From an archaeon GW2011_AR20 (lineage in GTDB: Archaea > Nanobdellota > Nanobdellia > SCGC-AAA011-G17 > GW2011-AR20): DNA of 64,000 bases. The translations under genes and the position numbers were made by a program. The DNA is taken from assembly GCA_000830315.1 (NCBI GenBank), contig CP010426.1, positions 588,663 through 652,662 on the forward strand. Reading direction: 5' to 3'. Below are positions 6,406-63,566 of this stretch, piece by piece (positions within the stretch are counted from its first letter, which is position 1; every line of letters begins with the position of its first letter). Under the pieces are notes generated by a model. That model had not been told where the DNA came from. It saw only the letters and a list, made by a program, of their open reading frames with translations, and made no database searches.

Positions 6406-6409
6406 AATG

Positions 6410-6515
6410 TGGGCCTGAGCGGATTTGAACCGCCGACCACGCGTGCTCTTAGCTTACTAATGCACCTGGCATCGTCATATAAGACGCGTGCTCTACCAGG
6501 CTAAGCTACAGGCCC
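6410..6515 (-). tRNA. tRNA-Ile-like with anticodon UAU and an intron of about 32 nt
   Basis: Acceptor GGGCCTG/CAGGCCC, Ile-like D-arm GTAGCTTAGCCTGGTAGAGC, anticodon stem CGCGT/ACGCG, loop CTTATA followed by the intron. The loop nucleotides CTTA pair with TAAG at the intron 3' end, which is a canonical h' helix. It lies 4 nt from tRNA-Glu. Confidence 0.65.
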
Positions 6516-6595: not shown

Positions 6596-9136
6596 ATGCA
6601 ATTTTATAAGCTTGATAAAAAAGAGGTATTTAAATTCCTAGATTCTGATGAAGAAGGATTAACGAATCAAGAATCTAACTTAAGATTAGGAAAATATGGC
6701 TTAAATGAATTACAAGCCAAGAAGGAAAACAGGGCATTAAAGATTTTATTTTCCCAATTAAATAGCTTTGTTGTTTATATCTTAATTGCTGCGATGCTTA
6801 TCTCTTTCTTTGTAAGGGAATATTTAGATGGAATTGTTATCTGTGCGATTATAATACTAAACACCCTGCTTGGATTTTTCCAGGAATACAAGGCAGAAAG
6901 GGCAATTCAGGCATTAAAAAAACTTGAAACGAGTAAATGCCTGGTTGTAAGGGATAAAAAGCACATTATGATTGAGAGCAAATTTCTTGTTCCCGGCGAT
7001 ATAATTCTCCTAGAAGAAGGAAATAAAGTTCCAAGTGATTGTTATTTATTAGAGGCTTACGATGTAAAGGCAGACGAGAGCATTTTGACAGGTGAAAGTG
7101 TTCCTGTAAAAAAATTTGCCAATAAAATAGATCATGATGCCCAGATAGCGGACCAGAGCAATATGCTGTTCTCAAGCACCACTGTCGTAAGCGGCAAGGC
7201 AAAAGCAATTGTTGTCAAAACAGCAATGGAAACCGAAGTGGGCAAGATAGCAAATATCATACAGGAGGATAAAGAAAAAGCAACACCTTTGCAGAAGAAA
7301 TTAGCCTCTCTTGGAAAAACTCTTGGTATAGCCGTAATAATTATTGCATTAATAATTTTGTTTACCGGTTTATTGGAAGGGGAAGATTTAGGCAGCATGT
7401 TGTTGATAGCAATAAGCCTGGCTGTTGCGGCTGTTCCAGAAGGACTCCCGGCAGTTGTAACAATTTCCCTTGCTCTTGGCGTGCAAAGAATGGTCAAAAA
7501 AAATGTTTTGGTTAGGAAATTAAGTTCTGTTGAAACTTTAGGAAGCACAACCATAATTTGCTCTGATAAAACAGGAACCCTTACACAAAATAAAATGACG
7601 GTTACGAAAATGTTTTTAGACAATAAAGTTCTTGACATAAGCGAGAATTCAAAGAACAAGGACTTATTGTTGAAAATTATGGTTAACTGCAATGATGCTA
7701 AATTGCCTGATATAGGGGATCCAACTGAATTGGCGTTATTAAGAATAGAACCAAAAACCCCTGTTTATGCAAGAATAGATGAAATCCCGTTTAACTCTGA
7801 AAGAAAGTATATGATAACACACCACAAATTTGATAATAAGGTAATGACGTTTTCTAAATTTGCGCCTGAGAAAATTCTTGAGTTATGCTCTTATATTAAT
7901 GTTAATGGAAAGATAACAAAATTTACCAACGAGAAAAAAGCACATATCCTAAAAATTAACGAGGATTTGGCAAAACAAGCCTTGCGTTTGCTTGGATGTG
8001 CTTATTCCGACGGGAAAAAAACAAAAGATTTGATTTTTGTTGGCTTGGTTGGCATGATTGATCCGCCGAGGCCAGAAATTAAGAATTCTATTGAGATATG
8101 CAAAAGAGCAGGCATAAAATCCGTGATGATAACAGGGGATCATAAGATTACAGCACAGGCCATTGCAAGGCAGATAGGTTTAGATGATAGGGCATTAACC
8201 GGCCAGGAATTAGAAGAACTATCTGATGAAAGGCTTGAGCAGATTGTTAATGACATAAGCATATATGCAAGGGTAAATCCCGAGCATAAAGTCAGGATAT
8301 TAAATGCATTAAAGAAAAAGGGAAACATTGTTGCAATGACCGGAGACGGAATAAATGATGCACCTGCTTTGAAGAAATCAGACATTGGTGTGGCAATAGG
8401 AAGCGGAACAGATGTTGCCAAGGAAGCTTCTGACATGGTCTTGCTGGATAATAATTTTCATTCAATCACATTGGCAGTTGAAGAAGGAAGGGGGATATAT
8501 GACAATATTAAAAGATTTGTCAATTACCTATTATCAAGTAATTTCGGGGAGGTGTTAATTTTATTTGCCGCCATATTGATCGGATTTAAGGATGAACTTG
8601 GGGGAATAGCCCTGCCTCTGGGAGCATTGGAATTATTGTGGATAAATTTGGTTACAGACGGCTTGCCTGCATTGGCTTTGGGCGTTGATGCCATAACAAT
8701 AGAGTTAATGTCAAGAAAGCCAAGAAAGCCGAAGGAAAACATTATTTCAAAGACAATGACGTTTAACATAATTGCAACATCATTAATAATGGCTTTAATT
8801 GTCTTGTTTTTATTTAACAAGTTTTTATCCCAGGGTTTATTAAAGGCGCAGACAATTGCATTTACCACCATCGTGATTTTGGAAATGGCGCGTGTATTAA
8901 TAATACGCAGGGAGTATAAATTAAATTTATTTTCGAATAAATGGTTAATCTTGGCCATAATGAGCTCAATCACCCTCCAGTTGGTTGTGATTTATACGCC
9001 TTTGAACAAAATATTTGAAACAGTTCCATTAACCTTGATTGAATTGGGATATATCGGGGCAGCTGCACTGGCAATGTTTGTTTTTGGTGCAATAGCAAAT
9101 TATATAATAAGAAACTTTACCAAGGAAATGGACTAA
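6596..9136 (+). CDS. P-type cation-transporting ATPase (type IIA, Ca2+-ATPase-like)
   Basis: Phosphorylation motif ICSDKTGTLT, hinge TGDGINDAPAL, TGES motif, and about 10 predicted TM segments. 846 aa. Confidence 0.9.
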   Translation: MQFYKLDKKEVFKFLDSDEEGLTNQESNLRLGKYGLNELQAKKENRALKILFSQLNSFVVYILIAAMLISFFVREYLDGIVICAIIILNTLLGFFQEYKAERAIQALKKLETSKCLVVRDKKHIMIESKFLVPGDIILLEEGNKVPSDCYLLEAYDVKADESILTGESVPVKKFANKIDHDAQIADQSNMLFSSTTVVSGKAKAIVVKTAMETEVGKIANIIQEDKEKATPLQKKLASLGKTLGIAVIIIALIILFTGLLEGEDLGSMLLIAISLAVAAVPEGLPAVVTISLALGVQRMVKKNVLVRKLSSVETLGSTTIICSDKTGTLTQNKMTVTKMFLDNKVLDISENSKNKDLLLKIMVNCNDAKLPDIGDPTELALLRIEPKTPVYARIDEIPFNSERKYMITHHKFDNKVMTFSKFAPEKILELCSYINVNGKITKFTNEKKAHILKINEDLAKQALRLLGCAYSDGKKTKDLIFVGLVGMIDPPRPEIKNSIEICKRAGIKSVMITGDHKITAQAIARQIGLDDRALTGQELEELSDERLEQIVNDISIYARVNPEHKVRILNALKKKGNIVAMTGDGINDAPALKKSDIGVAIGSGTDVAKEASDMVLLDNNFHSITLAVEEGRGIYDNIKRFVNYLLSSNFGEVLILFAAILIGFKDELGGIALPLGALELLWINLVTDGLPALALGVDAITIELMSRKPRKPKENIISKTMTFNIIATSLIMALIVLFLFNKFLSQGLLKAQTIAFTTIVILEMARVLIIRREYKLNLFSNKWLILAIMSSITLQLVVIYTPLNKIFETVPLTLIELGYIGAAALAMFVFGAIANYIIRNFTKEMD

Positions 9137-10081: not shown

Positions 10082-11767
10082 ATGCCCTTTCTTCGTAATT
10101 ATATGGATGCATTCAAGCAGCATATTGTAAAATTACTTAAAAAAAATACCCAAATAAATGAGGACGAAATTTCTACGTTGTTGGAGGTTCCACCAAATCC
10201 AAATTTTGGGGACTATTCTTTTCCATGTTTCCTGCTTGCACAAAATTTAAAGCAAAACCCAGTTGAAGTTGCAAGTAATTTGAGCAAGTATTTTCTTAAA
10301 GATGAATTTATTTCAAGAGTAGAGTGCAAGGGGGCTTATCTCAATTTTTTCATTAACCAGGCCAAATTAAATGAGGTTACTGTGAAAGAAATCTTAAAAC
10401 TAAAAGAAAGATACGGAAGCATGCATCTTAAAGGGAAAAGGGCATTAATAGAGCATACATCAATAAATCCGAATGCAGAACCCCATGTTGGACGGGCGAG
10501 AAACGCGTTTATCGGGGACGCAATTGTAAGATTAATAAGGTTCAATGGATATAAGACAGAGGTTCATTATTATATTAATGACATCGGAAAGCAGATAGCC
10601 ATGCTGGTTTTGGCTGCAAATGGAAAAAAGCCGAAATTTCATGAATTAATTGATTTGTACATTGAAATAAACAAAAAAATAGAGAAAAACCCAGAAATTG
10701 AAAAGAAAGTCTTTGAATTATTAAATAAGCTTGAAAAGGGAAATAAAAAAGTAAAGAAGCAGTTTAATGACATTGTTAAAATATGTGTTGAAGGACAAAA
10801 CGAAATACTAAATGATCTGGGAATTAAATACGACTTCTTTGATTACGAAAGCAAGTACTTATTCAACAAAGACTGCGAGAACTTGCTGAAGGAATTAGTT
10901 AACACAAAAAAACTATTTACAGACAATGAGCAAAGGCAGGTTCTGGATTTGCGCGAATCTTTGGGAGAAGAGCAGGGATTTTTTGTCTTAACAAGGGCAG
11001 ACGGAACCTCTTTGTATGGATTAAGGGATTTGGCTTATACAATTTACAAGATTAAAAAGGCAAAAGACAGGAATATAGTTGTTCTTGGTGAAGATCAAAA
11101 ATTATACTTTACCCAATTAAGAGCCGCATTGAAATTGTTAAATTACAGGGCGCCTGAAATTGTTCATTATTCTTTTGTTTTATTGCAGGAAGGTAAAATG
11201 TCTACAAGAAAAGGCAATGTTGTTCTATTAAGCGAATTTATGAATGAAGCAGAGAAAAAGGCCCGGGGTGAACTGGATAAAAGAAAAAACCAAGATAAGA
11301 GATTAGCCAAGATAATTGGTTATGGGGCTTTGAAATACTCAGTATTAAAAAATTCTCCTGAAAAAAACGTGATATTTGACTGGGATCAGGCTCTGACGTT
11401 TGACGGAGAAAGTTCCCCATATATACAATACTCATATGCAAGGGCAAGTTCAATATTAAAGAAAGTCAAGATGGATAAAAAGTTTAAATTTGACTTATTA
11501 AATAATAAATATGAGATTGAATTAGTTAAATTATTAAGTAATTTTCCAGGCGTGATTAATAAAGCATCGAGAGATTTAAAGCCAAATTACATTGCGAATT
11601 ATTCATATGACCTTGCCCAGAAATTCAATGAATTTTATCATAATTGTCCTGTGATTAAGGAGAGCGGAGAATTAAGGAATACAAGATTAGCTCTGGTTTT
11701 GGCCTTTACTTATGTTATTCAAACTTCTTTGAATTTACTTGGAATAGAAGCTCCTGAAAAAATGTAG
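10082..11767 (+). CDS. argS: Arginyl-tRNA synthetase
   Basis: Class I HIGH-like motif (PNAEPHVGRARNAFIGD). The length (561 aa) and C-terminal DALR-like region fit ArgRS. Confidence 0.88.
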   Translation: MPFLRNYMDAFKQHIVKLLKKNTQINEDEISTLLEVPPNPNFGDYSFPCFLLAQNLKQNPVEVASNLSKYFLKDEFISRVECKGAYLNFFINQAKLNEVTVKEILKLKERYGSMHLKGKRALIEHTSINPNAEPHVGRARNAFIGDAIVRLIRFNGYKTEVHYYINDIGKQIAMLVLAANGKKPKFHELIDLYIEINKKIEKNPEIEKKVFELLNKLEKGNKKVKKQFNDIVKICVEGQNEILNDLGIKYDFFDYESKYLFNKDCENLLKELVNTKKLFTDNEQRQVLDLRESLGEEQGFFVLTRADGTSLYGLRDLAYTIYKIKKAKDRNIVVLGEDQKLYFTQLRAALKLLNYRAPEIVHYSFVLLQEGKMSTRKGNVVLLSEFMNEAEKKARGELDKRKNQDKRLAKIIGYGALKYSVLKNSPEKNVIFDWDQALTFDGESSPYIQYSYARASSILKKVKMDKKFKFDLLNNKYEIELVKLLSNFPGVINKASRDLKPNYIANYSYDLAQKFNEFYHNCPVIKESGELRNTRLALVLAFTYVIQTSLNLLGIEAPEKM

Positions 11768-29458: not shown

Positions 29459-29545
29459 GGGGCTATGGTCTAGCTTGGCTATGATATACGCTTAGGGACA
29501 AAAGCTGAAAAGCGTATGACCCCAGTTCAAATCTGGGTAGCCCCA
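29459..29545 (+). tRNA. Intron-containing tRNA of unresolved isotype (Val-like D-arm). Anticodon is GAA if the 13-nt intron lies after position 33, or AGG if it is canonical 37/38.
   Basis: Acceptor GGGGCTA/TAGCCCC + A. D-arm GTCT-AGCTTGGCTA-TGAT. Eight-bp continuous helix ATACGCTT/AAGCGTAT around a 15-nt loop. T-arm CCCAG-TTCAAAT-CTGGG. Confidence 0.55.
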
Positions 29546-30910: not shown

Positions 30911-31018
30911 TGCAGTAGCCGGGATTTGAACCCGGGTCGATGCCTTTTTGCTTTTGATTAAACTTTTTCTCAAAAGTTTATTGGCAAGGCACCATACTAA
31001 CCACTATACTACTACTGC
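30911..31018 (-). tRNA. tRNA-Gly (anticodon GCC) with an intron of about 36 nt
   Basis: Acceptor GCAGTAG/CTACTGC + A, anticodon stem GTGCC/GGCAT, loop TTGCCA | intron, T-arm CCGGG-TTCAAAT-CCCGG. Confidence 0.7.
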
Positions 31019-35655: not shown

Positions 35656-35988
35656 ATGGTTAAAGGTGTAGAGCATATAAGAAACGCTGGAATTTCTAAA
35701 AAGGATAACAATAATATGATAGAACGTTATCATAATGAATTTAGAGAGTTTGAAAAGATTAGAAGGAATTTCAAAAGAGTAAAAACTTTAGAGGAATGGA
35801 ATGATAATTATAGATTATACCACAACTACATTAAACAACATATGGCTTTAAATAATTTAACACCTTCACAATCAGCTAACATTAAGTTACCTTTAGAAAA
35901 TAACAGATGGTTAAGTTTATTGAAATTAAGCTTAAATCAACCGAATGTGACAAAAGAACAAGAAGTTAAGAAATCAACCGAAGATTAG
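35656..35988 (+). mobile_element. Relic of a DDE transposase/integrase (C-terminal fragment only)
   Basis: 110-aa ORF ending ...ERYHNEFREFEK..R.FK......NYI.QHMALNNLTPSQ, the typical C-terminus of an IS6/rve-type DDE core. No N-terminal catalytic region and no inverted repeats were found. Confidence 0.45.
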
Positions 35989-38201: not shown

Positions 38202-38804
38202 ATGTTTTCTAGTTATATGGGCTTTAAAGAAGAGGATGCTGTTAAAACAATTGGAGATTTATTGAATTATAATGATATGTCTAAGATTAGGGCTATCTTA
38301 AACGGCATAAATCCAAATATTTTTTCAAATTCTGACGTGAAATCAAAATTCAAGGAAGTCCTAGTTAATATGTACAATGCAGAAGATTTAGGTTATTTAA
38401 AGGAGCTGTTAAATGATTTTCTCAGGACTTATAACCAGTATAAAGGAGTTTTTCACTTTGGTTTTTGCTCAGAGGAATTTAGAAATAAATTTAAGAGAAG
38501 CGATTTTAACAATCCATTTGAGCTTAACCGTTTTAGGGAGATAATAGCAAAGATAGTTGAATATGGAAAAAATTACCCTAAAGAAACTCTTGGTGAATTT
38601 TTTATCAGTCCGAGGGGAAGAGAGAAACACAGAATAGCGTGGTTTGTTAAGGAAGATATGGTTTATTTTTGCGAGCCATTTCATCATGACAAGGAATATG
38701 ATAAATTTTGCAATGAAGCGAGTAAAAGAAAAATCTTAAAGGGTAATTACCACAATTGGAATTATGTTGAAGAATTTATGCCTTTAAATTTAAAAGCAGC
38801 ATAA
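38202..38804 (+). CDS. Protein with a C-terminal RelE/ParE-like toxin fold and a 120-aa N-terminal extension
   Basis: The C-terminus LGEFFISPRGREKHRIAWFVKEDMVYFCEPFHHDKEY fits the RelE/ParE core (R.G.YRI.Y...D..V.....H..Y). Confidence 0.4.
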   Translation: MFSSYMGFKEEDAVKTIGDLLNYNDMSKIRAILNGINPNIFSNSDVKSKFKEVLVNMYNAEDLGYLKELLNDFLRTYNQYKGVFHFGFCSEEFRNKFKRSDFNNPFELNRFREIIAKIVEYGKNYPKETLGEFFISPRGREKHRIAWFVKEDMVYFCEPFHHDKEYDKFCNEASKRKILKGNYHNWNYVEEFMPLNLKAA

Positions 38805-39250
38805 TTAAACAGTTCTTCTAATGTTGTTTGGTTATTTACAATTCTCTTTTCATATTTTACACTTCCTCTCAGTACACCTTGTTTATGGCTCAATATTTTA
38901 TTATAATCTGTTTTAACTGCTGATAAAAATTCATTATCGGTTCTATTTAAATCACTAAATGTTCTTTTAAAATAATTAACATCAGAAGTAAAGTAAATTA
39001 CTTTTGTAAATCCTAGTTCTGGTTTATAGTATACAGAAAATGATTCAAAATCCAATGCGTTATCTGAATAGTTTCTTGATAAAGTTACTGATTTGAAACC
39101 ATAGTTATTTGACAACACCAAATCTATGTCTTGCAAGCCTGTTTTTTCTTTAGAATCTATTCTAACAATTCTTAAATTGAAATCTTTGGACAATTTATTA
39201 GCTAAACCTTCTAAATCTATTTCGCTTTCAGTTTGAATTTCTTGTTGCAT
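38762..39250 (-). CDS. Hypothetical protein (last gene of the minus-strand operon)
   Basis: 162-aa ORF. No motif. Confidence 0.4.
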   Translation of the reverse strand: MQQEIQTESEIDLEGLANKLSKDFNLRIVRIDSKEKTGLQDIDLVLSNNYGFKSVTLSRNYSDNALDFESFSVYYKPELGFTKVIYFTSDVNYFKRTFSDLNRTDNEFLSAVKTDYNKILSHKQGVLRGSVKYEKRIVNNQTTLEELFNYAAFKFKGINSST

Positions 39251-39341
39251 TTTAATTTTCCTTTAATTTATTCTATCTTTATATTTTAATGAGATGTATT
39301 TTTTGAATGTTCTAAATCCATTTTATTTTTAATAAAAATAA

Positions 39342-40910
39342 TTATAATTTGCCTTTTATATCAAGTCTTAATTGTCTTTGTGAGTTATAATATATATCCG
39401 ATGCTATTTCCTTTGTTTTCAAAATTATATCTTCCACGCTTGGTCTTTCTTCTGTTTCTCTTGTCAATAGAGTTTTAGCTGCGGCAAAACCAACTTCCTT
39501 TGACATTATATCTAACAAATAGTCCGCTCTCTCAAATTCATCTTTATTTTTAAAATACTTTTCATAATCTGAATGGTTGGTGTTTACTTTTATGACCTTG
39601 CCAACTAATTTACTTCTCAACTTAGCTTCGCTTAAACCAAAACCTTCGAAATCTGGTATGAATGGAAAAACTTTTCTAGCTCCGCTTCCGCCTCCTGATT
39701 TTACTCTAGTTGGCTTTTTTATGCCTTCTTCGTCTGTTTTTTCCTGCGTCTCAACTATCTTTCTTGGACCAGACACCCTAAATAAGTTTCCCAATCCCAA
39801 ATCCCTATACACTTTATCAATTACTTGGACAACCTTGTCTGCAAGATCATAACTGCTTCTATCTTTTCTAACAGTATTTTTTTTAATTTGCACTTCTAAT
39901 GATTCACCAATTTCGTACATTTTAGGCAACCACAAATTCAAATTATTGTTAAACTCAAATGCATTTCTCGGAGCATTTAATGTTAAGAAATCATCATCTA
40001 CAAAACCTTCTAATTTACCAGAATTCCATGGTTCCTTGCCTAAAAACTCCAATGAGGCAATATCTCCGTTTACTTTTACTCCTTTATGATATACCCTGAC
40101 TTTGCCATCACTTATTTCCGGGTTTAATGTTATATGGAAATCAATTCTTCCAGTTCCTACAGTACCATCTTTTAATTTTACCCCTTCAACACTTAAATAA
40201 TCATCTTCATTCAATAAAACCTCTCCATCAAAACTTAATGGTTCTGGTTTTGCGAATCTTGTTTTTCCATCTCTGCTTAAATAACCAATGCTCATATCAA
40301 TACTGCCTTTTTTTAGTATTGGTGTATAAACCTCGCTCATTAATGATTCTAATTTTGATAAGAAAAAGTTTCTGCTCATTATTTCCTGATCAATATCTTC
40401 TAAATAAACGATAGTTCCTATTGATAATTTCGAAACTAAACTTTTTATGGCCTCGGGCACATTATTAAGATGTTCTGGATTTACAGTATTGAGGCGATAA
40501 TTTAATGCAGGATCTGCTTCAAGCAAATTTAGCAATGAGGATTCCTCGTCATTTCTTGATATAAAGATTAATTTATTCGCCTTTAGTCTTAAGTATGCTA
40601 AGTTACCTATGCCTTTTTCACCCTTCTGGGTTTTAGCAAATTCTTTTGCAGATTCGCCCACTAATGAAAAAGATTCTTTTAATCTGCCATAACTTATTCC
40701 AACACCGTTATCATAAACAGATACCCATCTTTGTGTCGGATTTACTGTTATATTGACCAAACCATTACTTATACCTCTTTCATCAATAGCATCTACAGCA
40801 TTTGTTGTATATTCCTTAAATGCTTCACCAGCTGTTGAATATAAGGATCCTAATAGCTGAATAATATGCTCGGCTTTTCTAGTTGAAAGACCAATTCTAC
40901 CTGTAATCAT
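39342..40910 (-). CDS. GHKL-superfamily ATPase (MutL/Hsp90/MORC-like Bergerat fold)
   Basis: N-box EYTTNAVDAID, G1 VYDNGVGIS, G2 KGEKGIGNLA. 522 aa. Its start overlaps the stop of the upstream gene. Confidence 0.7.
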   Translation of the reverse strand: MITGRIGLSTRKAEHIIQLLGSLYSTAGEAFKEYTTNAVDAIDERGISNGLVNITVNPTQRWVSVYDNGVGISYGRLKESFSLVGESAKEFAKTQKGEKGIGNLAYLRLKANKLIFISRNDEESSLLNLLEADPALNYRLNTVNPEHLNNVPEAIKSLVSKLSIGTIVYLEDIDQEIMSRNFFLSKLESLMSEVYTPILKKGSIDMSIGYLSRDGKTRFAKPEPLSFDGEVLLNEDDYLSVEGVKLKDGTVGTGRIDFHITLNPEISDGKVRVYHKGVKVNGDIASLEFLGKEPWNSGKLEGFVDDDFLTLNAPRNAFEFNNNLNLWLPKMYEIGESLEVQIKKNTVRKDRSSYDLADKVVQVIDKVYRDLGLGNLFRVSGPRKIVETQEKTDEEGIKKPTRVKSGGGSGARKVFPFIPDFEGFGLSEAKLRSKLVGKVIKVNTNHSDYEKYFKNKDEFERADYLLDIMSKEVGFAAAKTLLTRETEERPSVEDIILKTKEIASDIYYNSQRQLRLDIKGKL

Positions 40911-41515
40911 TTTCTTCTCCTTGGTCTATAGTCTGCCATTAAAATCCATGATTTGAATCTATCATTATCAAACATTGCGTTTAATGCACTTATTAAGTAA
41001 CCAACATCTTCTTTCTTCAAGCTCTTTGTGATTGTTTTTGTTAAAGCCTCAACTTTGTCCGGATTTTCCCTGTAATATTGTGATAGTAAAACAACTTGAT
41101 CTATTGATGTATTTACTGAATTAGAAAGCATTTTGGCCCTTTCTTCAGCGCTTGGCTCGTATCCTGAACCATCAAGATTTCTTGCCAATTCATCTAATTT
41201 ATGTAGTTCTGAAAGTAATTGTGTTAAATTAAGCTTACCTTGTTCAATAGAGTTCTGTGTTGCTTTAAGCATAAGGCTGGCTGGTTGAATATACGCTTTT
41301 TTAATGGATTCTAATCCCGTGAATGTATATAAGGCATCAATATATTTTTGATTGGATATCCCAGCAGTTTTTCCATTAATTTGATCTCCAAAAGTAGTTC
41401 TTGGTATTTTAACACCTGTTTTTTCTTCTAATTTCTCCAAAAAGTTTTTGGTACTAGGATACTTACTTAAAATATATCCTTTTAAATCATCATTCCATTT
41501 TCTATCGTCTGTCAT
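40907..41515 (-). CDS. Hypothetical protein (possible N-terminal HTH)
   Basis: 202 aa. Translationally coupled to the GHKL ATPase. Confidence 0.45.
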   Translation of the reverse strand: MTDDRKWNDDLKGYILSKYPSTKNFLEKLEEKTGVKIPRTTFGDQINGKTAGISNQKYIDALYTFTGLESIKKAYIQPASLMLKATQNSIEQGKLNLTQLLSELHKLDELARNLDGSGYEPSAEERAKMLSNSVNTSIDQVVLLSQYYRENPDKVEALTKTITKSLKKEDVGYLISALNAMFDNDRFKSWILMADYRPRRRK

Positions 41516-41573
41516 AATGGTTCAATATTTTTATGCGTTTATAAATCTTTCGTTTATTATTACTTTAAAGTGG

Positions 41574-42962
41574 TTATCTTTTTAACCTAAACCCAAAGGC
41601 AATCATGCTATGGACGCTATCACTATATCTTTCCAAAAATAATTTCTCTAAATCAAAATTGAATTTTTTAGCATATTCAGACAATAATTCAGATGCCAGT
41701 TTATACTGGTTTGTTGTAATATATCCTTTGATGCCATTTCCTCTTGATTTAATTACCCTTATTCTTTCCAAAGCAGTATCATTTAAAGTCATGAATATAA
41801 GCGAATTATTTTCCAGCATGTTTTTTTCAAATAAATGTTTTATAGCTTCTTCCTTATCAAAGGACCATCCCCCTTCATAATCCAAATTTAATAAATTGAA
41901 TTTTATGTTCTTGTATCTTTTATCCCTTAATGCGTCTAATAATTCTCCTTTATAAACATTTAAACCATTAAATATCTCTCCTCCTTTAATCAGGTCATTA
42001 TTACTGATTATTGACTGCATAATATTGGCTCTTTTCTCATCCCTTTCTGGAATCAGGCTTTCTTCCTGCAGTAAATTATTGAACGCAACAAAGGACATAT
42101 AACTTATAAAATTATTTCCTTCTAAACCCAAGTATTTTATTTTTTTGCTTTCTAAATATTCCAATAAAGAATTTATTTCTTTCTCCCTGATTCTCTGCTT
42201 TTCCTTGCCACTATAAACTTTTAATCCCAATATGCTCTTAGTTGCAATGGCTTCTAGTGTGCTTAGTTCCTGTTCAACAAATTCTTTGCTCAAAACTCCA
42301 TTTCTTTTCAGATATTCTTTTATTGTTTCTTCACTTAGCCTGAATTTTCTTCCTATTCTTGCAATATTGCCGTGATCTTTCCACTCTTCATATATCTTTT
42401 TTACCAAAACACCTTTATACCTAACTTTATCTTTTTTATTAAAAATAATTTTAGGTTTGCTGATTGTATGCATCATATTTTGATAGTTTGGTAAATCAAC
42501 ATCACCATAAATCAGGCCGTAATTATGCGTTAATTTTTCCCATAAATCCGGAGTTAATTCATTTTTAATTAAGTCAAGTATTTTCTCAAGATTTTTTCTC
42601 TTAATCGGCAAAATTACTTCTTTTTCTCTCCCCAATAAGACATCTAGGCTGTATGAATCTACAAGATTATTCTCAATAAACACATTATTTCTTACCAATA
42701 ATTTGCTTAATTCAAATATGTCTAAGTTATTTGATACAGCAAAACTCTTTAAATCTGTCTTTTGACTATTATTTCTATGTTTTTTCTTGCCAGAATCAAT
42801 GCTATTCTTAGCGTCGCTTAATTCCATAATTAATTCATCTTTTGTATGCTTAAAACCAGCATTCTTAAATTGCTTAATTACATCATTAATGCTCTTATTT
42901 CTAGCTAAAAAGTAAATTAGATAGAGTCTTTCTTCTGGCAGAAAATCCGGTTCGTTTGTCAT
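41574..42962 (-). CDS. Hypothetical protein with an internal HTH-like segment
   Basis: 462 aa. IARIGRKFRLSEETIKEYLKRNG resembles a sigma/wHTH helix-turn-helix. Confidence 0.45.
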   Translation of the reverse strand: MTNEPDFLPEERLYLIYFLARNKSINDVIKQFKNAGFKHTKDELIMELSDAKNSIDSGKKKHRNNSQKTDLKSFAVSNNLDIFELSKLLVRNNVFIENNLVDSYSLDVLLGREKEVILPIKRKNLEKILDLIKNELTPDLWEKLTHNYGLIYGDVDLPNYQNMMHTISKPKIIFNKKDKVRYKGVLVKKIYEEWKDHGNIARIGRKFRLSEETIKEYLKRNGVLSKEFVEQELSTLEAIATKSILGLKVYSGKEKQRIREKEINSLLEYLESKKIKYLGLEGNNFISYMSFVAFNNLLQEESLIPERDEKRANIMQSIISNNDLIKGGEIFNGLNVYKGELLDALRDKRYKNIKFNLLNLDYEGGWSFDKEEAIKHLFEKNMLENNSLIFMTLNDTALERIRVIKSRGNGIKGYITTNQYKLASELLSEYAKKFNFDLEKLFLERYSDSVHSMIAFGFRLKR

Positions 42963-42979
42963 TTTAAAAAATAAAAAAC

Positions 42980-44269
42980 TTATCGATATGGAACCCAGGA
43001 ATTACCGGTGTACATGTGGGTATAGATAAAATTCCTTATAGTTGGCAATTGATATTTCCCTTTCTTATTTAATTTTAAAATGCCTTCAGAAGTTAATTTA
43101 GTCATTGAATCATTGTCTAAATTTAACATGCCCTGTAATTCTTCACGAACAATTCCTTTCTTTAATTTTCTTTTCTTTGCTTCAATCTTGTACAACAAAC
43201 TCATCCTGTACAAGTGATTTTCAAATTCTTTTACAGGAACTAAATAAGTGTCTTTGCTTTCAATTATGTTTATCCTGTTTCTGGCTTTTAAATCAGATAC
43301 TCTGGATACATAATTGTGCAGTGAAATATCTTTTCCAGTAAGCTTTTGTTCAAGATCTTTCCACAACTTTGCAGCATCTCTGATTGAATAGCCTTGTTTC
43401 TTAGTCAAGTTTTCGTCAATTTTGTCTGCATCATAATATCTTTCACCTTCTCTAACTTCTGGTTTAACGACCCCTTTCTTTACAAGCCATGCAAGGCTTG
43501 CAGGATTTATACTGTATTTGCTATAAATTTCCTTAGGAGTGTAGAATTTTTTTTTGCTGATTTCGTGTTTGAACAAGTAACCTCCTTTATCATCATATAA
43601 GCTGAATCTGACATTCGCTTTCTTTAATCTGTCTAAATCTAGTTCGCTTTGGTTTTCAAATAACAGCCCCTTAAGATTTTGTAAGGATTTTTTAGCTTTC
43701 TCGGTCTCTTTATTTGGTTTTGCTGCTATTATTATCAAGCCATCCTTTTCTGTGCTTGAAATATCATCCAAAGTTAAATTAGCATCTTTTAATTTTTGAA
43801 CTTGTTCATTAAACCAAATGCCTACTGCTCCATATAGATCATAAGACAAGTTTTTTTGTTGTGGCACCCTATCTTCGCCATAAACAGGCAATACAAAAAC
43901 CAATGAATCATCTAAGCTAATTGCTCCTTGAACTTCTAAATCAGTTTTTACCCTGCCAAGGTTGGAGTCAAGGTTTTCATAACTTTTAATTTTGTTTTTA
44001 GCATTTTCATAAGCTGCTTTAATTGCTTTAGGAACTCTTTTCTTTTTTTCTACAAATCTTACAACATCAATATCGTCTTTGTTTTCTACTTTTAACCTAT
44101 TATACGTTTCTACAGCTTCTTCCAGAGGACTTATTTTTTCCAGCTCTTGCACTGCTAAAGCCCTTTCTCTAAGTAAATCTGCACCTCTTCTAACAGAGTG
44201 CATTATCGCGTCTTTTAATTCAACCAAAGACCTTTGTTCTGTTTTTCTTATGATATCTGAGATGCTCAT
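42980..44269 (-). CDS. Hypothetical Lys/Glu-rich protein
   Basis: 429 aa, no recognised family. Overlaps the upstream ORF by 4 nt. Confidence 0.45.
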   Translation of the reverse strand: MSISDIIRKTEQRSLVELKDAIMHSVRRGADLLRERALAVQELEKISPLEEAVETYNRLKVENKDDIDVVRFVEKKKRVPKAIKAAYENAKNKIKSYENLDSNLGRVKTDLEVQGAISLDDSLVFVLPVYGEDRVPQQKNLSYDLYGAVGIWFNEQVQKLKDANLTLDDISSTEKDGLIIIAAKPNKETEKAKKSLQNLKGLLFENQSELDLDRLKKANVRFSLYDDKGGYLFKHEISKKKFYTPKEIYSKYSINPASLAWLVKKGVVKPEVREGERYYDADKIDENLTKKQGYSIRDAAKLWKDLEQKLTGKDISLHNYVSRVSDLKARNRINIIESKDTYLVPVKEFENHLYRMSLLYKIEAKKRKLKKGIVREELQGMLNLDNDSMTKLTSEGILKLNKKGKYQLPTIRNFIYTHMYTGNSWVPYR

Positions 44270-44646
44270 TTTGATTCTCCGAAGCCGTTATATTGTGAAT
44301 AGCTAACAAGCTGTTTTGATAGTGAATTCCTTTCAGAATATAATAAGTTTAATTTTTCTCTTACCTCATCTTTTTCTGATTCTGCTTTTAGTTCTTTTTC
44401 ATATCTTGATACTTCAGTGTTTATTTCATCCAATCTCCTTTTTGTATCATCATGCTTAAACCTATTAACTGCGATTTTATCATTTTGCGGGATATCTTCA
44501 ATTGTTACTAAGCCTTCTAATTTGTCCTCGCTTAAGCTAAAATCTTTTATATCTAAACCAATTTTTATGGCCTTATTTGTTAATCTAAATAAATCTATAT
44601 GATACCTTAGTGCAATATCCCTTAAATCTATATTTCTTTTAGTCAT
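44266..44646 (-). CDS. Hypothetical protein
   Basis: 126 aa, charged and helical. Confidence 0.4.
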   Translation of the reverse strand: MTKRNIDLRDIALRYHIDLFRLTNKAIKIGLDIKDFSLSEDKLEGLVTIEDIPQNDKIAVNRFKHDDTKRRLDEINTEVSRYEKELKAESEKDEVREKLNLLYSERNSLSKQLVSYSQYNGFGESK

Positions 44647-44713
44647 TTTAGCTCAGTTTATCCTATAAAATCCTGTTTTATAAATCTTTCGGTTTGTAAC
44701 TACTTTAAAGTTA

Positions 44714-45022
44714 TTATTTTAATTTGAAACCCAAATATTTCTCAATTAAGAGGAATCTTGATACACTATAACCTCCACTATAATGCCATACTCCCCTGTC
44801 TTTATCTCCAAAATAATATACTTTCTCAGCAATAGTTCCCGGGTATGGGCATATTTCTATTTTTTGAAGTTCCCTATCTAAATCAAAAGTTAATTTATAT
44901 TCAAATTTTTTAGTTTTCCAGCTTATTATGTCATTTTTTTCAAATGAATTTTTTAGTCTAGCAAACTCTCTTCCATACATTTCTAATGCTTTCAATGTTT
45001 TTTCTAATTTTGATTGTGTCAT
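44714..45022 (-). CDS. Hypothetical protein
   Basis: 102 aa. Confidence 0.4.
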   Translation of the reverse strand: MTQSKLEKTLKALEMYGREFARLKNSFEKNDIISWKTKKFEYKLTFDLDRELQKIEICPYPGTIAEKVYYFGDKDRGVWHYSGGYSVSRFLLIEKYLGFKLK

Positions 45023-45029
45023 TTTAATC

Positions 45030-45560
45030 CTATTTTTTAATTATGGAAGTTGCAATATCAGCGAGAGTTTCTTCTCCACCACATTCTGATCTGATAAATT
45101 TAATACCTAGTTTTCTAGCATGTTCTATTTTTTTATCAATATCACATCCGCATCCAACTAAAGTTAATTTACTGGAATGATCTTTTCCTAGTCTATGAAC
45201 TAAGCCCAATGAAGTTTCTAACCCATATCTTCCACAATAAACTATTATTTCAGAGAAACTATCGCTCGGTTCAGATCCAAACAAATCATAAAATTTACTT
45301 GAAACTACACCCGCTGAATATTCTCCTGCTTGATAAGTTTCAGATTGTGAATGATAAGCTACAGGACTATAATGACCTTCTCCTCTAAAGATGATTAATT
45401 TACCATCTCCAAAGATTCCTTCTCCAAATCCTTTTACATCTCTGTAAGTAAGTATTAAACTCAATGGTTTTTTTAATTGTGATTTATCGATTTTCATTTT
45501 CTTTCTCCTTTCATATCCAATCTTATGTTGAATCATGAATATATTACTATAAAGTAACAC
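45030..45560 (-). CDS. Hypothetical protein (first gene of the operon)
   Basis: 176 aa. A Gly-rich N-terminal half (GFGEGIFGDG, GEGHY) and C-terminal LVGCGCD...SECGGE. No family recognised. Confidence 0.4.
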   Translation of the reverse strand: MLLYSNIFMIQHKIGYERRKKMKIDKSQLKKPLSLILTYRDVKGFGEGIFGDGKLIIFRGEGHYSPVAYHSQSETYQAGEYSAGVVSSKFYDLFGSEPSDSFSEIIVYCGRYGLETSLGLVHRLGKDHSSKLTLVGCGCDIDKKIEHARKLGIKFIRSECGGEETLADIATSIIKK

Positions 45561-54786: not shown

Positions 54787-54864
54787 TTTAACTCGAGTAA
54801 ATTAGAAGTAAGTTAGTATTTATAAAGCTTTCGTTTTATGCGCACTTTAAAGTAGTTACATTTA

Positions 54865-58552: not shown

Positions 58553-58652
58553 TATACTTTAATCAAAAATCATATTTAAAGTTAATCTAGTTACTTTAAA
58601 GTGGGTATTAAGAATAAAAGTTAATTTTTTAAACAAATTAGTAATTAAGATA

Positions 58653-59960: not shown

Positions 59961-62900
59961 TTATCTTATTCTAATAGCTTCCAAATTCTTCGGGGCATTT
60001 GTCTCTATCCTGAACATCTTATGCAAATTACTTGCTAAATCAAGGCAATTAGAATTATCCCCATGCAATAAAATTATTCTTTTCGGTTTTGGATTTAAAT
60101 GCCTGACAAATGATATCAATCTTTCTCTCGTGCTATGTCCTGTAAATCCCCTGATGGCTGCAATCTCCATCTTCAGAGAAATCTGTTTTCCGTCCAAGTT
60201 GAATTCTTTTTCGCCTTCCATTACTCTTCTTCCTAAACTTCCCCTGCCCAGGTAACTTGAAAATATCAATGAGTTTTTTGGATTATCTGATAATTCCTTG
60301 AAATATTCTACTGATGCTCCTCCAACCAGCATTCCGGAAGTCGCTAGAATAATGCAGGGACCAGATTGAATAACTTCCTGCATCTCCTGCCTTGATCCGA
60401 CCCTTTTAAAAACTTCATTCAAGAACGGATTTTGGTCTTTATGAAAAACCATCTTTCTTATGTTTGAATTAAAGAAATCAGGATATGCTGTATGTATTGC
60501 TGTAATATCCCAAACTGTTCCCTGCACGTAAACCGGAATTTTATCAAGCATTCCATTCCTGATCATTTTATCAATTATGACCATTATTTCCTGAGCTCTT
60601 CCTGTTCCCAAGACAGGCATCAAAACCTTTCCCCCTCTTTCAATTGTTTTTTTGATTGTATCAACTAAAATATCTTCTGCCTCTCTTCTGCTGGGGTAAT
60701 TTTCATTGCTTCCGCCGTAAGTTGCTTCCATTATCATTGTCTCTAATCTTGAGAATCTTGTCATAGCCGCGCTTAATAAATTACTTGTCTCATAATTCAT
60801 GTCCCCTGTATAAAGAATATTATGCAGCCCGTTTCCAATATTCAAATGAACCATTGCGCTTCCCAATGTATGTCCTGCATCATAAAATGTAATTCTAATG
60901 TCGGGGGTAATGTCAGTAACCTCATCATATTCTAATGTTATGGAATGCTTGACCATCTCTTTTATATCTGCACTTCCAAAAATTACCTTGCGGTTTTCTT
61001 TCTGGCTTACACTTATGTAATCAAGTGCCATTAAAGCTGCTATATCAAGTCCAGGCTCTGTATAATACACCGGTCCTTTAAAACCCATTTTATACAAGTA
61101 AGGGACAAATGCAGAGTTATGAACAACAACCCCATTAGCTACGAAATTTTGATTAGGTTCTACTTCTATATCAACCAAATAAGGATAAGGATTTTCTTTT
61201 TTCTCTATTTTTGTAATCTTTTGCCATATAACAGGCATTTCAACTAATTTTTTTAATTTATTAATATTATCTTGAGTTTTTAAGATTTTTATTTCTATCA
61301 GTTCATTTAATTTCTTATTCATCATTTCATAATATTTATCTTTTATATCAAAAACTTCCCTATTTTGAACGATTCCATAAGTAGTTTCAATCATTTGAGC
61401 AATATCTTTTCTAGGTAAAGAAATAGATTTTCTTTTTTTAGATATAGAAGAATTATTTTTCTCTTTTAAGTAAGTTAATCTTTCTTCAAGAAGTTCAATT
61501 AATTTATTAATGGTATTTTTATCTGCATAACTATTTCCTTTTCTTCTATACCGATCTAATAAAGCCGCTGGAAAATCGCTTATTTTAAATTCTTTATGGA
61601 CTTTTCCTAAAAATCCCGCATCCATTAAAATTTCTTTTAATTTAATTGAGGAAATAGGAATTATTTCTTTTAAATTCGTATCTCTCAATTTATTAACCAA
61701 GTTTTCTAATTTTAATTTTTTATCAATATGATTAAATCCAATTAAATTATAATACCTTTTAATAGAGTATGAAGAAGCTATATTAACAACCTTGTTTTTA
61801 TAATTTATATTGGATAATATCCCTAGTGTTGATAACATATGTTGTAGTGTTTCTAAAATTTTTTCTTGAGACGATGAAATTGATATGCAATTGTTTACAG
61901 AGCCTTCTGCATCGGCAATTCCTCTTAAAAATGCCCTTATAATATTATTTGAGCTAAAGATAATCTTTTCTGAGATATCTCTTTTTTTATTTTTTCCTAA
62001 AATTCCCTTAAAATTATCTTCAAAAAACTTCACAATGCCCGCATTATTTATTTCAATTATATGAGCATTTTTAGATTTATCCGGATGGTGTTTTAAAATA
62101 GGATCATAATTGAATATATTTTTTATTATATTTTTATATTCTTTTAAACAATCTGTTGACTGGTCAGTTATCCTAAATGTTCTTTCGCTTGCTAGTCCGC
62201 CGTCTCCAGTCATATATCCGGCCACTTGAGCCAATTCTTCATTAATATATTTAGGATAAACTGTCTTATTTATATTATACTTAGCCGCAAAATCATTAAA
62301 ATCAATTCCATAGAATCCTAAAATCTCTTTTAAAGTATTAATGTAAATATGCTTGTTCTTATTTTCCAGGTCAGAAATCAAATTTGTATGTTTTTTCAAA
62401 TGACTTACAATATAATCTTGAGTCCAATTCCTCTCTTTTCTTATAATTTTTAGTTTTTCAACTGCTTCTTGAGGTAATTCCAATCTTTCAAAATATTCCG
62501 GTTCTTTAAGTTCAATTCTTTTAAACTCATTTTCCTGTCCCATGTAACAAGGAATAACCATTCCTTCTCTTAAATTTTCAGCAGTGACTTCTTTAATTTC
62601 TAAATCTTTATCAATAACAAAAAATTTATGGTTTCTAGAAGATCCAATTGTATAATAAGATGTTTTAATTTTATAAATTTCTTTATGCTTTGTATTTTTC
62701 TTATAATTACATTTACCAATAACTCTCTTTCCAGTCTTCCAATCAATTCCAATTAATTTATCCCCTACTTTTATATCATCTATGGGCTTTATAGTTCCAT
62801 TTTCCAAATAAACGGGTGTATTTGGTGGTAAACAATGGTCAGCGTGCGCATGCGTAACAATAATAGCATCTAATTTGTTAATGTCAAATTCAGGGGCGTC

Positions 62901-63566
62901 CAGCATTGGATAAGAATCCTCTGGGTTATCTGCAGCAACATCTACTCCGCAGTCAAGCAATATTCTTGATTCAGGCGTCTGCAATAACAGGCATGATCTT
63001 CCTACCTGCCTTCCTGCCCCAAGAAAACTGATTCTGATCCATTCGTCTTTTTTCTCGTTTGTCCATCCGCCGTAAATTCTTTCACCGACCTTATTCAGGA
63101 ATTTTTTTCTGTAATCATTATGCTCGTATAAAACATCCCTTATTTTGTCTGTGATCTGGGATTTAATCGGGGGAGTTCTCCTGACTAAAGGAATCCAGAA
63201 TGTTTTTCTCTTTATTTCTTTTAATATATCCCCTGATTTTCCAATAGCTAACCCGGGCTTGCTGGCTTCTATTATAACCTTGCTTCTTGAAATATCAAAT
63301 ATGACGTTCGCCAAGCCAGCTTCTTCAGGAATTAATTTTTTAATCTCATTTTCTGCTTTTTCCTCTTCCATTAATAAGCTTTCATGAGGCCTTAACTCAA
63401 TTCTTTTTTTAACAGCTTCTACAATTGTTTTAATAACCTCGGAATTGTCCAAGAAAAATTCCTTGCTCTTGGTATAAAGAATAATATTTGCTCCTTCAAA
63501 TCCAGATTCAACTATGTTTGCGTTCTCTGGTACATACTTTAATACTTCTTTCAAAATTTCATTCAT
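59961..63566 (-). CDS. aCPSF1/FttA (KH-KH-metallo-beta-lactamase-beta-CASP RNA endonuclease) interrupted by an intein of about 573 aa
   Basis: N-terminal KH domains. The MBL motif THAHADH is immediately followed by the intein. The C-extein carries the beta-CASP and MBL motifs (GHTLGSA, ATYGG, LLHGD). Confidence 0.9.
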   Translation of the reverse strand: MNEILKEVLKYVPENANIVESGFEGANIILYTKSKEFFLDNSEVIKTIVEAVKKRIELRPHESLLMEEEKAENEIKKLIPEEAGLANVIFDISRSKVIIEASKPGLAIGKSGDILKEIKRKTFWIPLVRRTPPIKSQITDKIRDVLYEHNDYRKKFLNKVGERIYGGWTNEKKDEWIRISFLGAGRQVGRSCLLLQTPESRILLDCGVDVAADNPEDSYPMLDAPEFDINKLDAIIVTHAHADHCLPPNTPVYLENGTIKPIDDIKVGDKLIGIDWKTGKRVIGKCNYKKNTKHKEIYKIKTSYYTIGSSRNHKFFVIDKDLEIKEVTAENLREGMVIPCYMGQENEFKRIELKEPEYFERLELPQEAVEKLKIIRKERNWTQDYIVSHLKKHTNLISDLENKNKHIYINTLKEILGFYGIDFNDFAAKYNINKTVYPKYINEELAQVAGYMTGDGGLASERTFRITDQSTDCLKEYKNIIKNIFNYDPILKHHPDKSKNAHIIEINNAGIVKFFEDNFKGILGKNKKRDISEKIIFSSNNIIRAFLRGIADAEGSVNNCISISSSQEKILETLQHMLSTLGILSNINYKNKVVNIASSYSIKRYYNLIGFNHIDKKLKLENLVNKLRDTNLKEIIPISSIKLKEILMDAGFLGKVHKEFKISDFPAALLDRYRRKGNSYADKNTINKLIELLEERLTYLKEKNNSSISKKRKSISLPRKDIAQMIETTYGIVQNREVFDIKDKYYEMMNKKLNELIEIKILKTQDNINKLKKLVEMPVIWQKITKIEKKENPYPYLVDIEVEPNQNFVANGVVVHNSAFVPYLYKMGFKGPVYYTEPGLDIAALMALDYISVSQKENRKVIFGSADIKEMVKHSITLEYDEVTDITPDIRITFYDAGHTLGSAMVHLNIGNGLHNILYTGDMNYETSNLLSAAMTRFSRLETMIMEATYGGSNENYPSRREAEDILVDTIKKTIERGGKVLMPVLGTGRAQEIMVIIDKMIRNGMLDKIPVYVQGTVWDITAIHTAYPDFFNSNIRKMVFHKDQNPFLNEVFKRVGSRQEMQEVIQSGPCIILATSGMLVGGASVEYFKELSDNPKNSLIFSSYLGRGSLGRRVMEGEKEFNLDGKQISLKMEIAAIRGFTGHSTRERLISFVRHLNPKPKRIILLHGDNSNCLDLASNLHKMFRIETNAPKNLEAIRIR
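61116..62834 (-). other. Intein with a LAGLIDADG-type homing endonuclease inside aCPSF1
   Basis: Starts with Cys right after HAHADH and ends in VVHN with Ser +1. Internal motifs VAGYMTGDGG and LRGIADAEGS. Coordinates are from frame arithmetic, +/-3 nt. Confidence 0.75.

Follow-up and report, generated by a model that had tools for sequence, protein, structure and literature searches.

What is a GHKL-type ATPase doing at the heart of a run of poorly annotated genes in an archaeal chromosome? The question is raised by a block on the minus strand (45560 to 38762) of the window, by which we mean the whole 64,000-nucleotide (nt) stretch of the archaeon GW2011_AR20 analysed here. A sequence-only reading of this DNA had taken the block for an undescribed conflict system or mobile-element module, with eight collinear minus-strand genes. 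All eight were found in the six-frame list of open reading frames (ORFs) with the sizes given (176, 102, 126, 429, 462, 202, 522 and 162 amino acids (aa)), and we label their proteins g1 to g8 in order of transcription. We tentatively favour, with confidence a little short of even, the view that the block is a restriction-modification-like (paraMORC- or BREX-like) module that would discriminate between self and foreign DNA in an epigenetic conflict. The evidence comes chiefly from a second enzyme in the block, the predicted methyltransferase g5, and from relatives of the ATPase, g7, that are encoded with methyltransferases in archaea and in bacteria.

The two enzymes of the block

The best-conserved protein of the block is g5 (41574 to 42962, minus strand; 462 aa), with an N-terminal helical domain, a helix-turn-helix (HTH) segment and a predicted C-terminal class I S-adenosylmethionine (SAM) methyltransferase fold. 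An exhaustive HMMER search of 1.84 billion representatives gave 137 clusters at 50% identity (55 of them at E<=1e-30), which have in common only g5 residues ~185-461, their N-termini being very diverse. We call this region g5C (residues 185-462, HTH plus methyltransferase; 41577 to 42410, minus strand). No Pfam domain was found over it in any of the clusters, and phmmer and profile searches of g5 against PDB sequences gave no match. A first AF2 model of full-length g5, from a 5-sequence alignment, had a predicted local distance difference test score (pLDDT) of 59, and its N-terminal domain had no Foldseek match. A second AlphaFold model, of residues 185-462 only and from a 35-sequence alignment, reached a pLDDT of 96.3 and a predicted template modelling score (pTM) of 0.91. 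Compared with the PDB by Foldseek, this model had 258 matches at E<=1e-3; the 50 listed were without exception methyltransferases or methyltransferase-like, and the top neighbours were amino-methyltransferases of the RsmD/Trm1 type. The model has the seven-stranded Rossmann-like fold of class I SAM methyltransferases, with a C-terminal beta hairpin.

Residues E306 (P-E-R-D) and D361 (N-L-D-Y-E-G-G) are invariant in 35 diverse g5C members, and G279 and G364 nearly so; the two acids are consistent with acidic motif II and a variant motif IV. With motifs placed from the sequence, motif I reads Y-L-G-L-E-G and motif IV D-Y-E-G, not (D/N)PP(Y/F). A weak HTH_28 signal, below the Pfam cut-off, covers residues 193-220. 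As modelled, g5 is the core enzyme of the block, joining an HTH to a C-terminal class I SAM methyltransferase fold, and the g5C HTH-methyltransferase family is new, being absent from Pfam, NCBIfam and PADLOC. The ATPase had been described as having seven family-less partners. That holds for the others, which have no family match by sequence, and fails for g5, given its predicted fold; the label conceals the second enzyme of the system.

The ATPase itself, g7 (39342 to 40910, minus strand; 522 aa), is a genuine GHKL ATPase, nearest to the N-domains of Hsp90. It matches Pfam PF13589 (HATPase_c_3) at E 1.1e-8, with 35.6 bits against a cut-off of 25. The N-box (E33..N37..D40), G1 (D67-x-G-x-G71) and G2 (G97-x-K-x-x-G102) are invariant in five homologs at E33, N37, D40, D67, G69, G71, G97, K99 and G102, which confirms the Bergerat fold claimed earlier. 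The accompanying label 'MutL/MORC-type' was too specific: the best solved-structure matches of the g7-family profile are Hsp90 N-domains (E 7.5e-7, g7 residues 19-126), and the NCBIfam MutL model scores 13.4 bits against a cut-off of 391. NCBIfam also gave 23.5 bits for Top6B (cut-off 274), on the N-terminal domain only, and about 15-34 bits for 'HSP90 family protein' models (cut-offs 371-455) with g7 and most family members. The top NCBIfam match was NF050001 (BbrUII/HgiDII; E 2.3e-7, 29.7 bits against a cut-off of 550), which aligns g7 residues 21-180 with model positions 14-174 and leaves the rest of the 659-aa model unmatched. Beyond the HATPase domains no MutL feature of g7 was matched in Pfam, which also found no Toprim protein in the block, and the window region has no MutS gene. 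The absence of a Top6A/Spo11, MutS or histidine-kinase partner, noted earlier, was upheld, and the block is no housekeeping cluster of the Top6, MutL or histidine-kinase kind.

In g7 an Hsp90-like ATP-binding domain (~15-190) is followed by a middle domain conserved in the family (PWNSGKL..G.ID..F..L...R); after a linker of low complexity comes a helical C-terminal domain, in which the motif F..RS..IN..H.D[FY] is invariant. Sequence profiles of the middle and C-terminal domains matched no solved structure among PDB sequences. The GHKL family with this IN-x-x-H-x-D-[FY] C-terminal domain is new as well, and absent from the same three collections.

Relatives, partners and gene layout

Close relatives of the block are few. 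Protein searches gave 3, 5 and 6 matches among 5.8 billion proteins, and among 185,579 species genomes the close family was found at one locus, in a Candidatus Woesearchaeota metagenome-assembled genome (MAG); locus counts are lower bounds, the collection scans having used narrow peptide patterns. We typed 37 loci with local hidden Markov models (HMMs). About six lineages of groundwater archaea of the Woesearchaeota type share a conserved unit, g3-g4-g5-g6-g7, to which g8 is added in some loci. L001, L005, L007/L015 and L014 repeat the order g4-g5-g6-g7, and L003 and L008 the order g5-x-g6-g7, at 24-56% identity. A check of gene-neighbourhood conservation had been proposed earlier; run here, it showed the g3-g7 order to be kept in several archaeal loci.

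Loci of type A (the window, L001, L005, L007/L015, L014) consist of g1-g2 or a 291-aa methyltransferase-like gene, then g3, g4, g5, g6 and g7, and in some cases g8. Type B (L003/L016, L008/L010) has a g5-like gene, x261, a g6-like gene, g7, in some cases the 291-aa-type gene, x314, and genes for a MoxR-type AAA+ protein, a VWA protein, a receiver domain and others. Type C (L017-L026) has small ORFs, g1-like genes, a 650-860-aa protein ending in g5C, APH-type kinases nearby and a divergent AbrB-type regulator with an N-terminal MazE/AbrB-like domain. One further locus (L011) holds only a 423-aa protein and a g5C protein, adjoining DNA ligase. Since g5C is found across the locus types, the invariant core of the wider family is the HTH-methyltransferase; g6-g7 appears in this comparison as an add-on pair, always together.

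Several of these loci have features of their own. L003 (5001-18964) and L008 (905-11874) carry a larger relative of the block, with ~15 co-directional genes; downstream of the GHKL gene lie a MoxR-type AAA+ ATPase, a VWA protein, a receiver domain, a 2-oxoglutarate (2OG)-Fe(II) oxygenase and a dCTP-deaminase-like gene. Their x314 (306/314 aa) begins ..IDACCLEDI.., ends ..YTKDRDI.. and by eye resembles a PIN-like nuclease. In L018, L020, L021 and L022 (about 4-11 kb each) there is no GHKL gene, and a divergent AbrB-type regulator, a receiver-fused g1-like domain and APH-type kinases lie nearby.

Relatives of g7 also occur in bacteria. P0142 and P0143, two bacterial proteins picked up by the g7-family profile (E 1e-15 to 1e-18), are both collinear with g7 over its full length, including the C-terminal motif in the form IN-T-x-H-x-D-F. 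Each is encoded in a four-gene cassette for a multi-HTH protein, the GHKL protein, a helical protein of 295 aa and a methyltransferase of Dam type, which matches PF02086 and the PADLOC Type II MTase model (E 1e-78). The first protein (455 or 515 aa) has HhH/sigma-r4-type DNA-binding motifs, and the stop of its gene overlaps the GHKL start. One cassette (L032) is part of a prophage-like region that also encodes a serine recombinase, a ParB-methylase and a terminase; the other (L033) stands directly after a MazE-PIN pair. Comparison of g3, g4, g5N, g6 and g8 with the bacterial partners, x261 and x314 by hhalign gave no relation. Judged from these alignments, archaea and bacteria alike combine this ATPase family with an HTH protein and a methyltransferase, but the methyltransferase family differs between them. 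The exchange of one methyltransferase for a functionally equivalent one is the strongest reason to think that g5 acts on DNA and works with the ATPase.

The cassette was located at L032 2942-7677, at L033 8454-13385 and in L034, and PADLOC and NCBIfam name only its MTase. Another GHKL cassette, in a plasmid context, is found in L035 (Roseomonas mucosa plasmid p2-AD3, 3199-7476), which encodes a DGQHR (DndB-like) protein, a 547-aa hypothetical protein and a 527-aa GHKL 'ATP-binding protein' matching g7 residues 16-246.

The partners within the conserved unit are mostly HTH proteins. The smallest, g3 (44266 to 44646, minus strand; 126 aa), has homologs in L001 (41% identity) and L007, and its N-terminal segment looks HTH-like by eye. 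Its neighbour g4 (42980 to 44269, minus strand; 429 aa) has a MerR/excisionase-type HTH at ~residues 243-302, with a MerR_1 match just below the Pfam cut-off (E 5.9e-4), and orthologs in L001 (46%), L005 (32%) and L007 (24%) that are encoded directly upstream of g5. To judge from weak scores (HMM E 0.0013, hhalign probability 10%), g4 may conceivably correspond to the N-terminal half of the 650-860-aa fused g5C proteins. In g6 (40907 to 41515, minus strand; 202 aa) an N-terminal XRE-like HTH and a helical C-terminal domain can be made out by eye in the alignment, and no database match supports the HTH; its gene is always directly upstream of the GHKL gene (L001, L005, L007, L003, L008). Two partners with HTH-like segments had been reported; there are three (g4, g5, g6), all of them weak and below Pfam cut-offs.

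The outer genes are less constant. The g1 gene (45030 to 45497, minus strand) probably starts at ATG 45497, giving 155 aa, where a GGAG lies 8 nt upstream and the homolog alignment begins; the ORF reaches GTG 45560 (176 aa). The protein is of alpha/beta type with invariant C-x-C and C-G-G motifs and has no Pfam or PDB match. In L018, L020 and L021 a homolog (E 1e-5 to 1e-12) precedes genes of the g5C family, in L020/L021 as a fusion to a receiver-like domain; g1 is an accessory component outside the type A core. The 102-aa ORF g2 (44714 to 45022, minus strand) has no homolog in any locus examined with local HMMs, and because of this its status as a gene is uncertain. L001 has, in place of g1-g2, a 291-aa methyltransferase-like gene (motif LADLGSGDG), a second and canonical methyltransferase-like gene that in L008 follows the GHKL gene. 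Earlier counted as members of the block, g1 and g2 fall outside its conserved core. Two ideas on their origin were rejected: g2 as a decayed g5 C-terminus, with a z about 0 against shuffles at the protein level and only ~60 nt of DNA, including the promoter, repeated; and g1+g2 as a split version of the 291-aa protein of L001, to which no similarity was found. At the other end g8 (38762 to 39250, minus strand; 162 aa) showed no recognisable features in the family scans and is conserved in L001 and L002 only.

The junction gaps from g1 to g8 are 7, 67, -4, 17, 58, -4 and 91 nt. Stops and starts overlap at g3/g4 and g6/g7 only (4 nt each, ATGA), and with gaps of 67 and 58 nt elsewhere the picture of one tightly coupled, co-translated eight-gene operon has to be given up. 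Because those two gaps hold promoter-like copies, the block looks like three or four transcription units and is best read as the sub-operons g1-g2, g3-g4-g5, g6-g7 and g8.

The copies belong to a ~60-nt element that occurs twice in the block, in the 67-nt g2/g3 spacer (44677 to 44720, minus strand) and in the 58-nt g5/g6 spacer (41538 to 41580, minus strand). In both, a perfect 10-bp palindrome, ACTTTAAAGT, is followed by CGAAAGATTTATAAA, which resembles a transcription factor B recognition element (BRE) with TATA box and reads as the archaeal BRE plus TATA box; it stands 30 nt before the ATG of g3 and 22 nt before that of g6. The element is also found 5' of three L001 module genes (about 1240-1275, 2140-2180 and 5300-5340) and 5' of g6 in L005 (about 2525-2565). 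In the window it marks four promoters, the two in the block and those at 54819-54858 and 58588-58607, with three exact 15-mer matches. As the latter two are unrelated to the block, a module-specific operator was rejected, and the element is therefore a promoter or operator of the host repertoire, possibly the site of a host transcription factor. The palindrome is often longer (..GT(A/G)GTTA), with a strong BRE/TATA-like CGAAAG(A/C)TTTATAAA adjoining. In the Woesearchaeota MAG copy (L007) the spacers at 8289-8343 and 11048-11150 have AT-rich tandem repeats, (TTGAAATTTA)x3 and repeated AAAAAATTAATATAAAAAA, in place of the palindrome and BRE/TATA element.

A putative methylation-based module and its alternatives

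In the restriction-modification-like module that we tentatively favour, g3-g4-g5 would form a DNA-targeted unit, with HTH domains guiding g4 and g5 to DNA rather than RNA; the cell's own DNA would be methylated at an exocyclic amino group, and the methylation would serve as a mark of self. On DNA without the mark, g6-g7 would act as an HTH-guided, ATP-gated dimerising clamp or looping motor. Blocking, cleavage or a signal via an effector would follow, with a restriction or abortive outcome; the candidates for the effector are the g7 C-terminal domain, g8 and a convergently encoded RelE-like protein, p200.

We count several findings for this reading. Among them are the predicted fold and invariant acids of g5C, the intact ATP-binding motifs of g7, the recurring gene order, the bacterial cassettes and the second methyltransferase-like gene of L001 and L008. 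The pairing of a methyltransferase with a GHKL ATPase is the theme of the MORC/paraMORC restriction-modification systems (PMC2292703), a precedent for such ATPases in this setting. The modules that vary between related loci (MoxR-VWA, APH-type kinases, receiver domains) are typical of conflict systems. The distribution is very sparse, and toxin-antitoxin (TA) modules are near the loci in the window, L011 and L033. The best NCBIfam match of g7, far below its cut-off, is to the BbrUII/HgiDII restriction family.

A wider claim may be made for the g5C loci as a whole (at least 137 clusters), which might be a class of methylation-based immunity that is modular, centred on archaea and equipped with a non-canonical effector, having its GHKL half in common with the Dam-linked cassette of bacteria and prophages. 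On the g5C core the add-ons would be the Hsp90-like GHKL with its HTH adaptor, MoxR-VWA, APH-type kinases, the receiver-fused g1 and the second methyltransferase, and the window would be one compact subtype. We regard this as possible but doubtful.

A number of results weigh against a restriction-modification-like function. Scans of all nine proteins, p200 included, with Pfam, PADLOC, PHROGs and NCBIfam returned only the GHKL domain, weak HTH matches and the RelE-like part of p200. In the same collections and with profiles, no nuclease, helicase or other effector domain was found in the eight block proteins; none of the nine gave a match to a restriction endonuclease model of PADLOC, Pfam or NCBIfam, and no helicase or nuclease was recognised in any related locus either. 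No system model of PADLOC-DB 2.0 (BREX, DISARM, MADS, Mza, Tiamat and others) matched the block. The sole PADLOC matches were those of the g4 HTH to mad1 (E 0.0037, 15.5 bits) and of p200 to CARF_RelE, and in the relatives that of the bacterial Dam MTase only. Motifs I and IV are atypical, so that the catalytic competence of g5C is putative, and the nearest structural relatives of the domain act on rRNA or tRNA, not DNA. Type C loci have no GHKL gene, and the flanks of L007 are housekeeping genes. The block of L001 lies at the same chromosomal site as that of the window, adjoining the u143-MGMT-AAA genes, with orthologs 41-56% identical inside the block and 53-70% in the flanks, and the GC content of the block (0.28-0.33) matches the remainder of the window. 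One site in two genomes, orthologs 41-70% identical and host-like GC point to stable vertical inheritance, not defence-island turnover. The sharing of the palindrome with two other window promoters suggests integration into host regulation.

Much of this would be expected of a lineage-specific host system with no part in defence, which would control epigenetic state or transcription, organise chromatin or modify RNA. In such a system the HTH-rich proteins and the methyltransferase would act on host nucleic acid, as regulators or to set a mark, and the Hsp90-like ATPase would remodel the complex. The same locus in two diverged genomes, its host-like composition without mobility signatures, a promoter palindrome in common with other host promoters, rRNA/tRNA methyltransferases as nearest structural neighbours of g5, the missing effector and the housekeeping neighbours of L007 and L011 all fit such a role, and the AbrB-type regulator, receiver domains and kinases of type C are reminiscent of signalling. 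A host function is harder to reconcile with an extremely patchy distribution, which left one match for the close family among all the species genomes searched, and with the variable gene content; bacterial g7 relatives, moreover, are encoded together with a Type II Dam-like MTase inside a prophage-like element, and the many HTH domains favour double-stranded DNA over RNA substrates. On balance we consider it unlikely.

It is improbable that the block is the remnant or cargo of an integrated mobile element (a provirus or plasmid) serving maintenance, anti-restriction or superinfection exclusion. That the genes all run one way, are poorly characterised and rich in HTH segments, and have promoters among them would suit such an origin, and so would the TA modules nearby and a 110-aa ORF at 35656-35988, between an L35Ae-like gene and L10e, with weak rve_3 and DDE_Tnp_IS240 matches (E 3e-4), which is probably an insertion sequence (IS) transposase fragment. 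At the block, however, there is no integrase, no flanking attachment-site (att) direct repeat, no adjacent tRNA (the nearest is 7 kb away), no GC deviation and no viral hallmark gene, structural or replicative; searches in and around it for att repeats, tRNA targets, Rfam RNAs and terminators gave nothing relevant. Weak PHROG matches (g6 with a small terminase, E 0.003; g7 with phrog_6203, E 6e-13) and the prophage-like surroundings of the bacterial relative L032 speak for an element. Yet the plasmid and phage matches of g7 cover the generic GHKL domain only, those in phages being in rIIA-like proteins, no g5C relatives were found in IMG/VR or GenBank phages, and the chromosomal position has been kept across deep divergence. 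The earlier proposal of an undescribed conflict system or mobile-element module stands in so far as a check with PADLOC 2.0, Pfam, NCBIfam and PHROGs gave no named system, only the generic GHKL domain; the defence function is conjectural, with no nuclease, helicase or toxin recognised as effector in the operon, and the integrated element suggested with it finds no counterpart in the flanks, where att repeats were searched.

The flanking genes themselves are as first described (HepT/MNT, RelE-like and PIMT on one side, VapBC and Lrp on the other), according to Pfam and PADLOC CARF_RelE. Pfam matches are to HepT (PF01934, E 9e-27), MNT (PF01909/PF18765) and PCMT (E 5e-57), and on the other side to PIN (PF10130/PF01850, E 2e-26) and Lrp/AsnC; for the 79-aa VapB candidate Pfam gave nothing. 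The 'classic defense-island context' drawn from these neighbours is not conserved, L007 having its housekeeping flanks and L001 lacking the VapBC-Lrp insert that the window gained between u143 and g1.

The RelE-like neighbour p200 (38202 to 38804, plus strand; 200 aa) is convergent with g8 and owes its description to the C-terminus (PADLOC CARF_RelE, E 9.3e-7). The two genes overlap tail to tail by exactly 43 nt (38762-38804), as they do in L001 (7982-8024), where the p200 ortholog is 51% identical, in spite of protein identities of only 46-51%; synteny between the window and L001 stops just past p200. It is possible that p200 is an effector or a mere neighbour. A TA-like addiction or abortive-infection module, with p200 or a hidden toxin restrained by the methyltransferase and ATPase proteins, would suit its RelE-like C-terminus, its retention with g8 and the identical overlap in L001 and the end of synteny immediately behind it, and is very improbable, as p200 lies on the opposite strand and is absent beside the module in L005, L007, L003 and L008, where the downstream genes are unrelated.

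A 5S rRNA and long tRNA matches of 106-120 nt mark the window as archaeal, and its sequence is identical to that of a metagenome scaffold from the Rifle aquifer. Rfam gave five window tRNAs, several of them 87-120 nt long (6286-6515, 29459-29545, 30911-31018), and ARAGORN one; at such lengths introns are likely. A 1201-aa ORF at 59961-63566 (minus strand) is by eye a beta-CASP/metallo-beta-lactamase RNase-like protein (..THAHADH/C...VVVHN/S..), broken by an intein-like insertion that carries LAGLIDADG-type motifs.

Restriction-modification and CRISPR systems are reported to be scarce in DPANN archaea, whose genomes are tiny (PMC12988326); as a means by which such cells might handle viruses and foreign DNA, the block is a concrete, conserved candidate. 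If the g5C loci are immune systems, they are a new methylation-based class native to DPANN and other archaea; if their function is regulatory, the block is a rare dedicated epigenetic machine in a minimal archaeon. Through the g7 family the archaeal loci are connected with the Dam cassette of bacteria and prophages, which is tractable in E. coli. The cassette offers a route to the role of GHKL ATPases in methylation-based systems, a question open since the paraMORC prediction of 2008.

Comparison with known systems

The closest parallel is with the GHKL ATPases of the MORC and paraMORC families in prokaryotic restriction-modification systems (Iyer, Abhiman & Aravind 2008, PMC2292703). In these proteins the GHKL domain is followed by an S5-fold domain, and the genes are operonic with a DNA methylase and a superfamily II helicase and/or a restriction endonuclease (RE)-fold or HNH nuclease; that survey found only three archaeal MORCs (PMC2292703). 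Like them, the block encodes, beside a methyltransferase, a GHKL ATPase that continues past its ATP-binding domain into a conserved region and a C-terminal extension; it is sporadically distributed and is proposed to clamp or loop DNA with the energy of ATP in an epigenetic self/non-self system. Unlike them, it has no superfamily II helicase or RE-fold, HNH or Vsr nuclease partner, the partners being HTH proteins; its ATP-binding domain scores best with Hsp90, not MutL or MORC; its methyltransferase is of a new RsmD/Trm1-like family, not Dcm or Dam; and its hosts are DPANN-type archaea. Of the linkage that marks the paraMORC group, the methyltransferase is present, as g5 here and as Dam in the bacterial cassettes, and no locus showed the helicase or nuclease. 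The block seems compatible with this group, in which membership is not demonstrable, the middle-domain profile finding no solved structure.

The resemblance to BbrUII/HgiDII (NF050001), a family named as restriction enzymes, is limited to the N-terminal region of g7, of which only the first ~170 residues align, at a score far under the cut-off. With the bacterial cassette the block has in common the GHKL family, an overlapping HTH gene upstream, a methyltransferase in the operon and TA or prophage genes nearby; the bacterial methyltransferase, in contrast, is D12/Dam (PF02086) rather than g5C, and the HTH partner and 295-aa protein show no detectable similarity to g3, g4, g6 or g8. BREX/Pgl and MADS are likewise multi-gene systems with a DNA methyltransferase, an ATPase and no obvious classical nuclease, and APH-type kinases occur in relatives of the block; PADLOC found no PglZ, BrxC, PglX, PglW or Mad protein, and the likeness is one of logic only.

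Other comparisons concern the single enzymes. RsmD and Trm1 act on rRNA and tRNA and are universal housekeeping genes, whereas the g5C family has no Pfam or NCBIfam family match, is fused to an HTH and carries D-Y-E-G rather than DPPF or DPFG at motif IV. In contrast to Type II restriction-modification, no cognate restriction endonuclease was found beside the g5 methyltransferase. The ATP-binding domain of g7 is most similar to the N-domains of Hsp90/HtpG, from which g7 differs in that only residues 19-126 align, the middle and C-terminal domains being unmatched, and in its operon context.

The block belongs to none of MutL, Top6B, Hsp90 and the systems of PADLOC. By analogy it would work most like a paraMORC/restriction-modification or BREX-type methylation-associated system, and it brings new components to that theme in DPANN-type archaea, namely an HTH-methyltransferase family, a GHKL family and their HTH partners.

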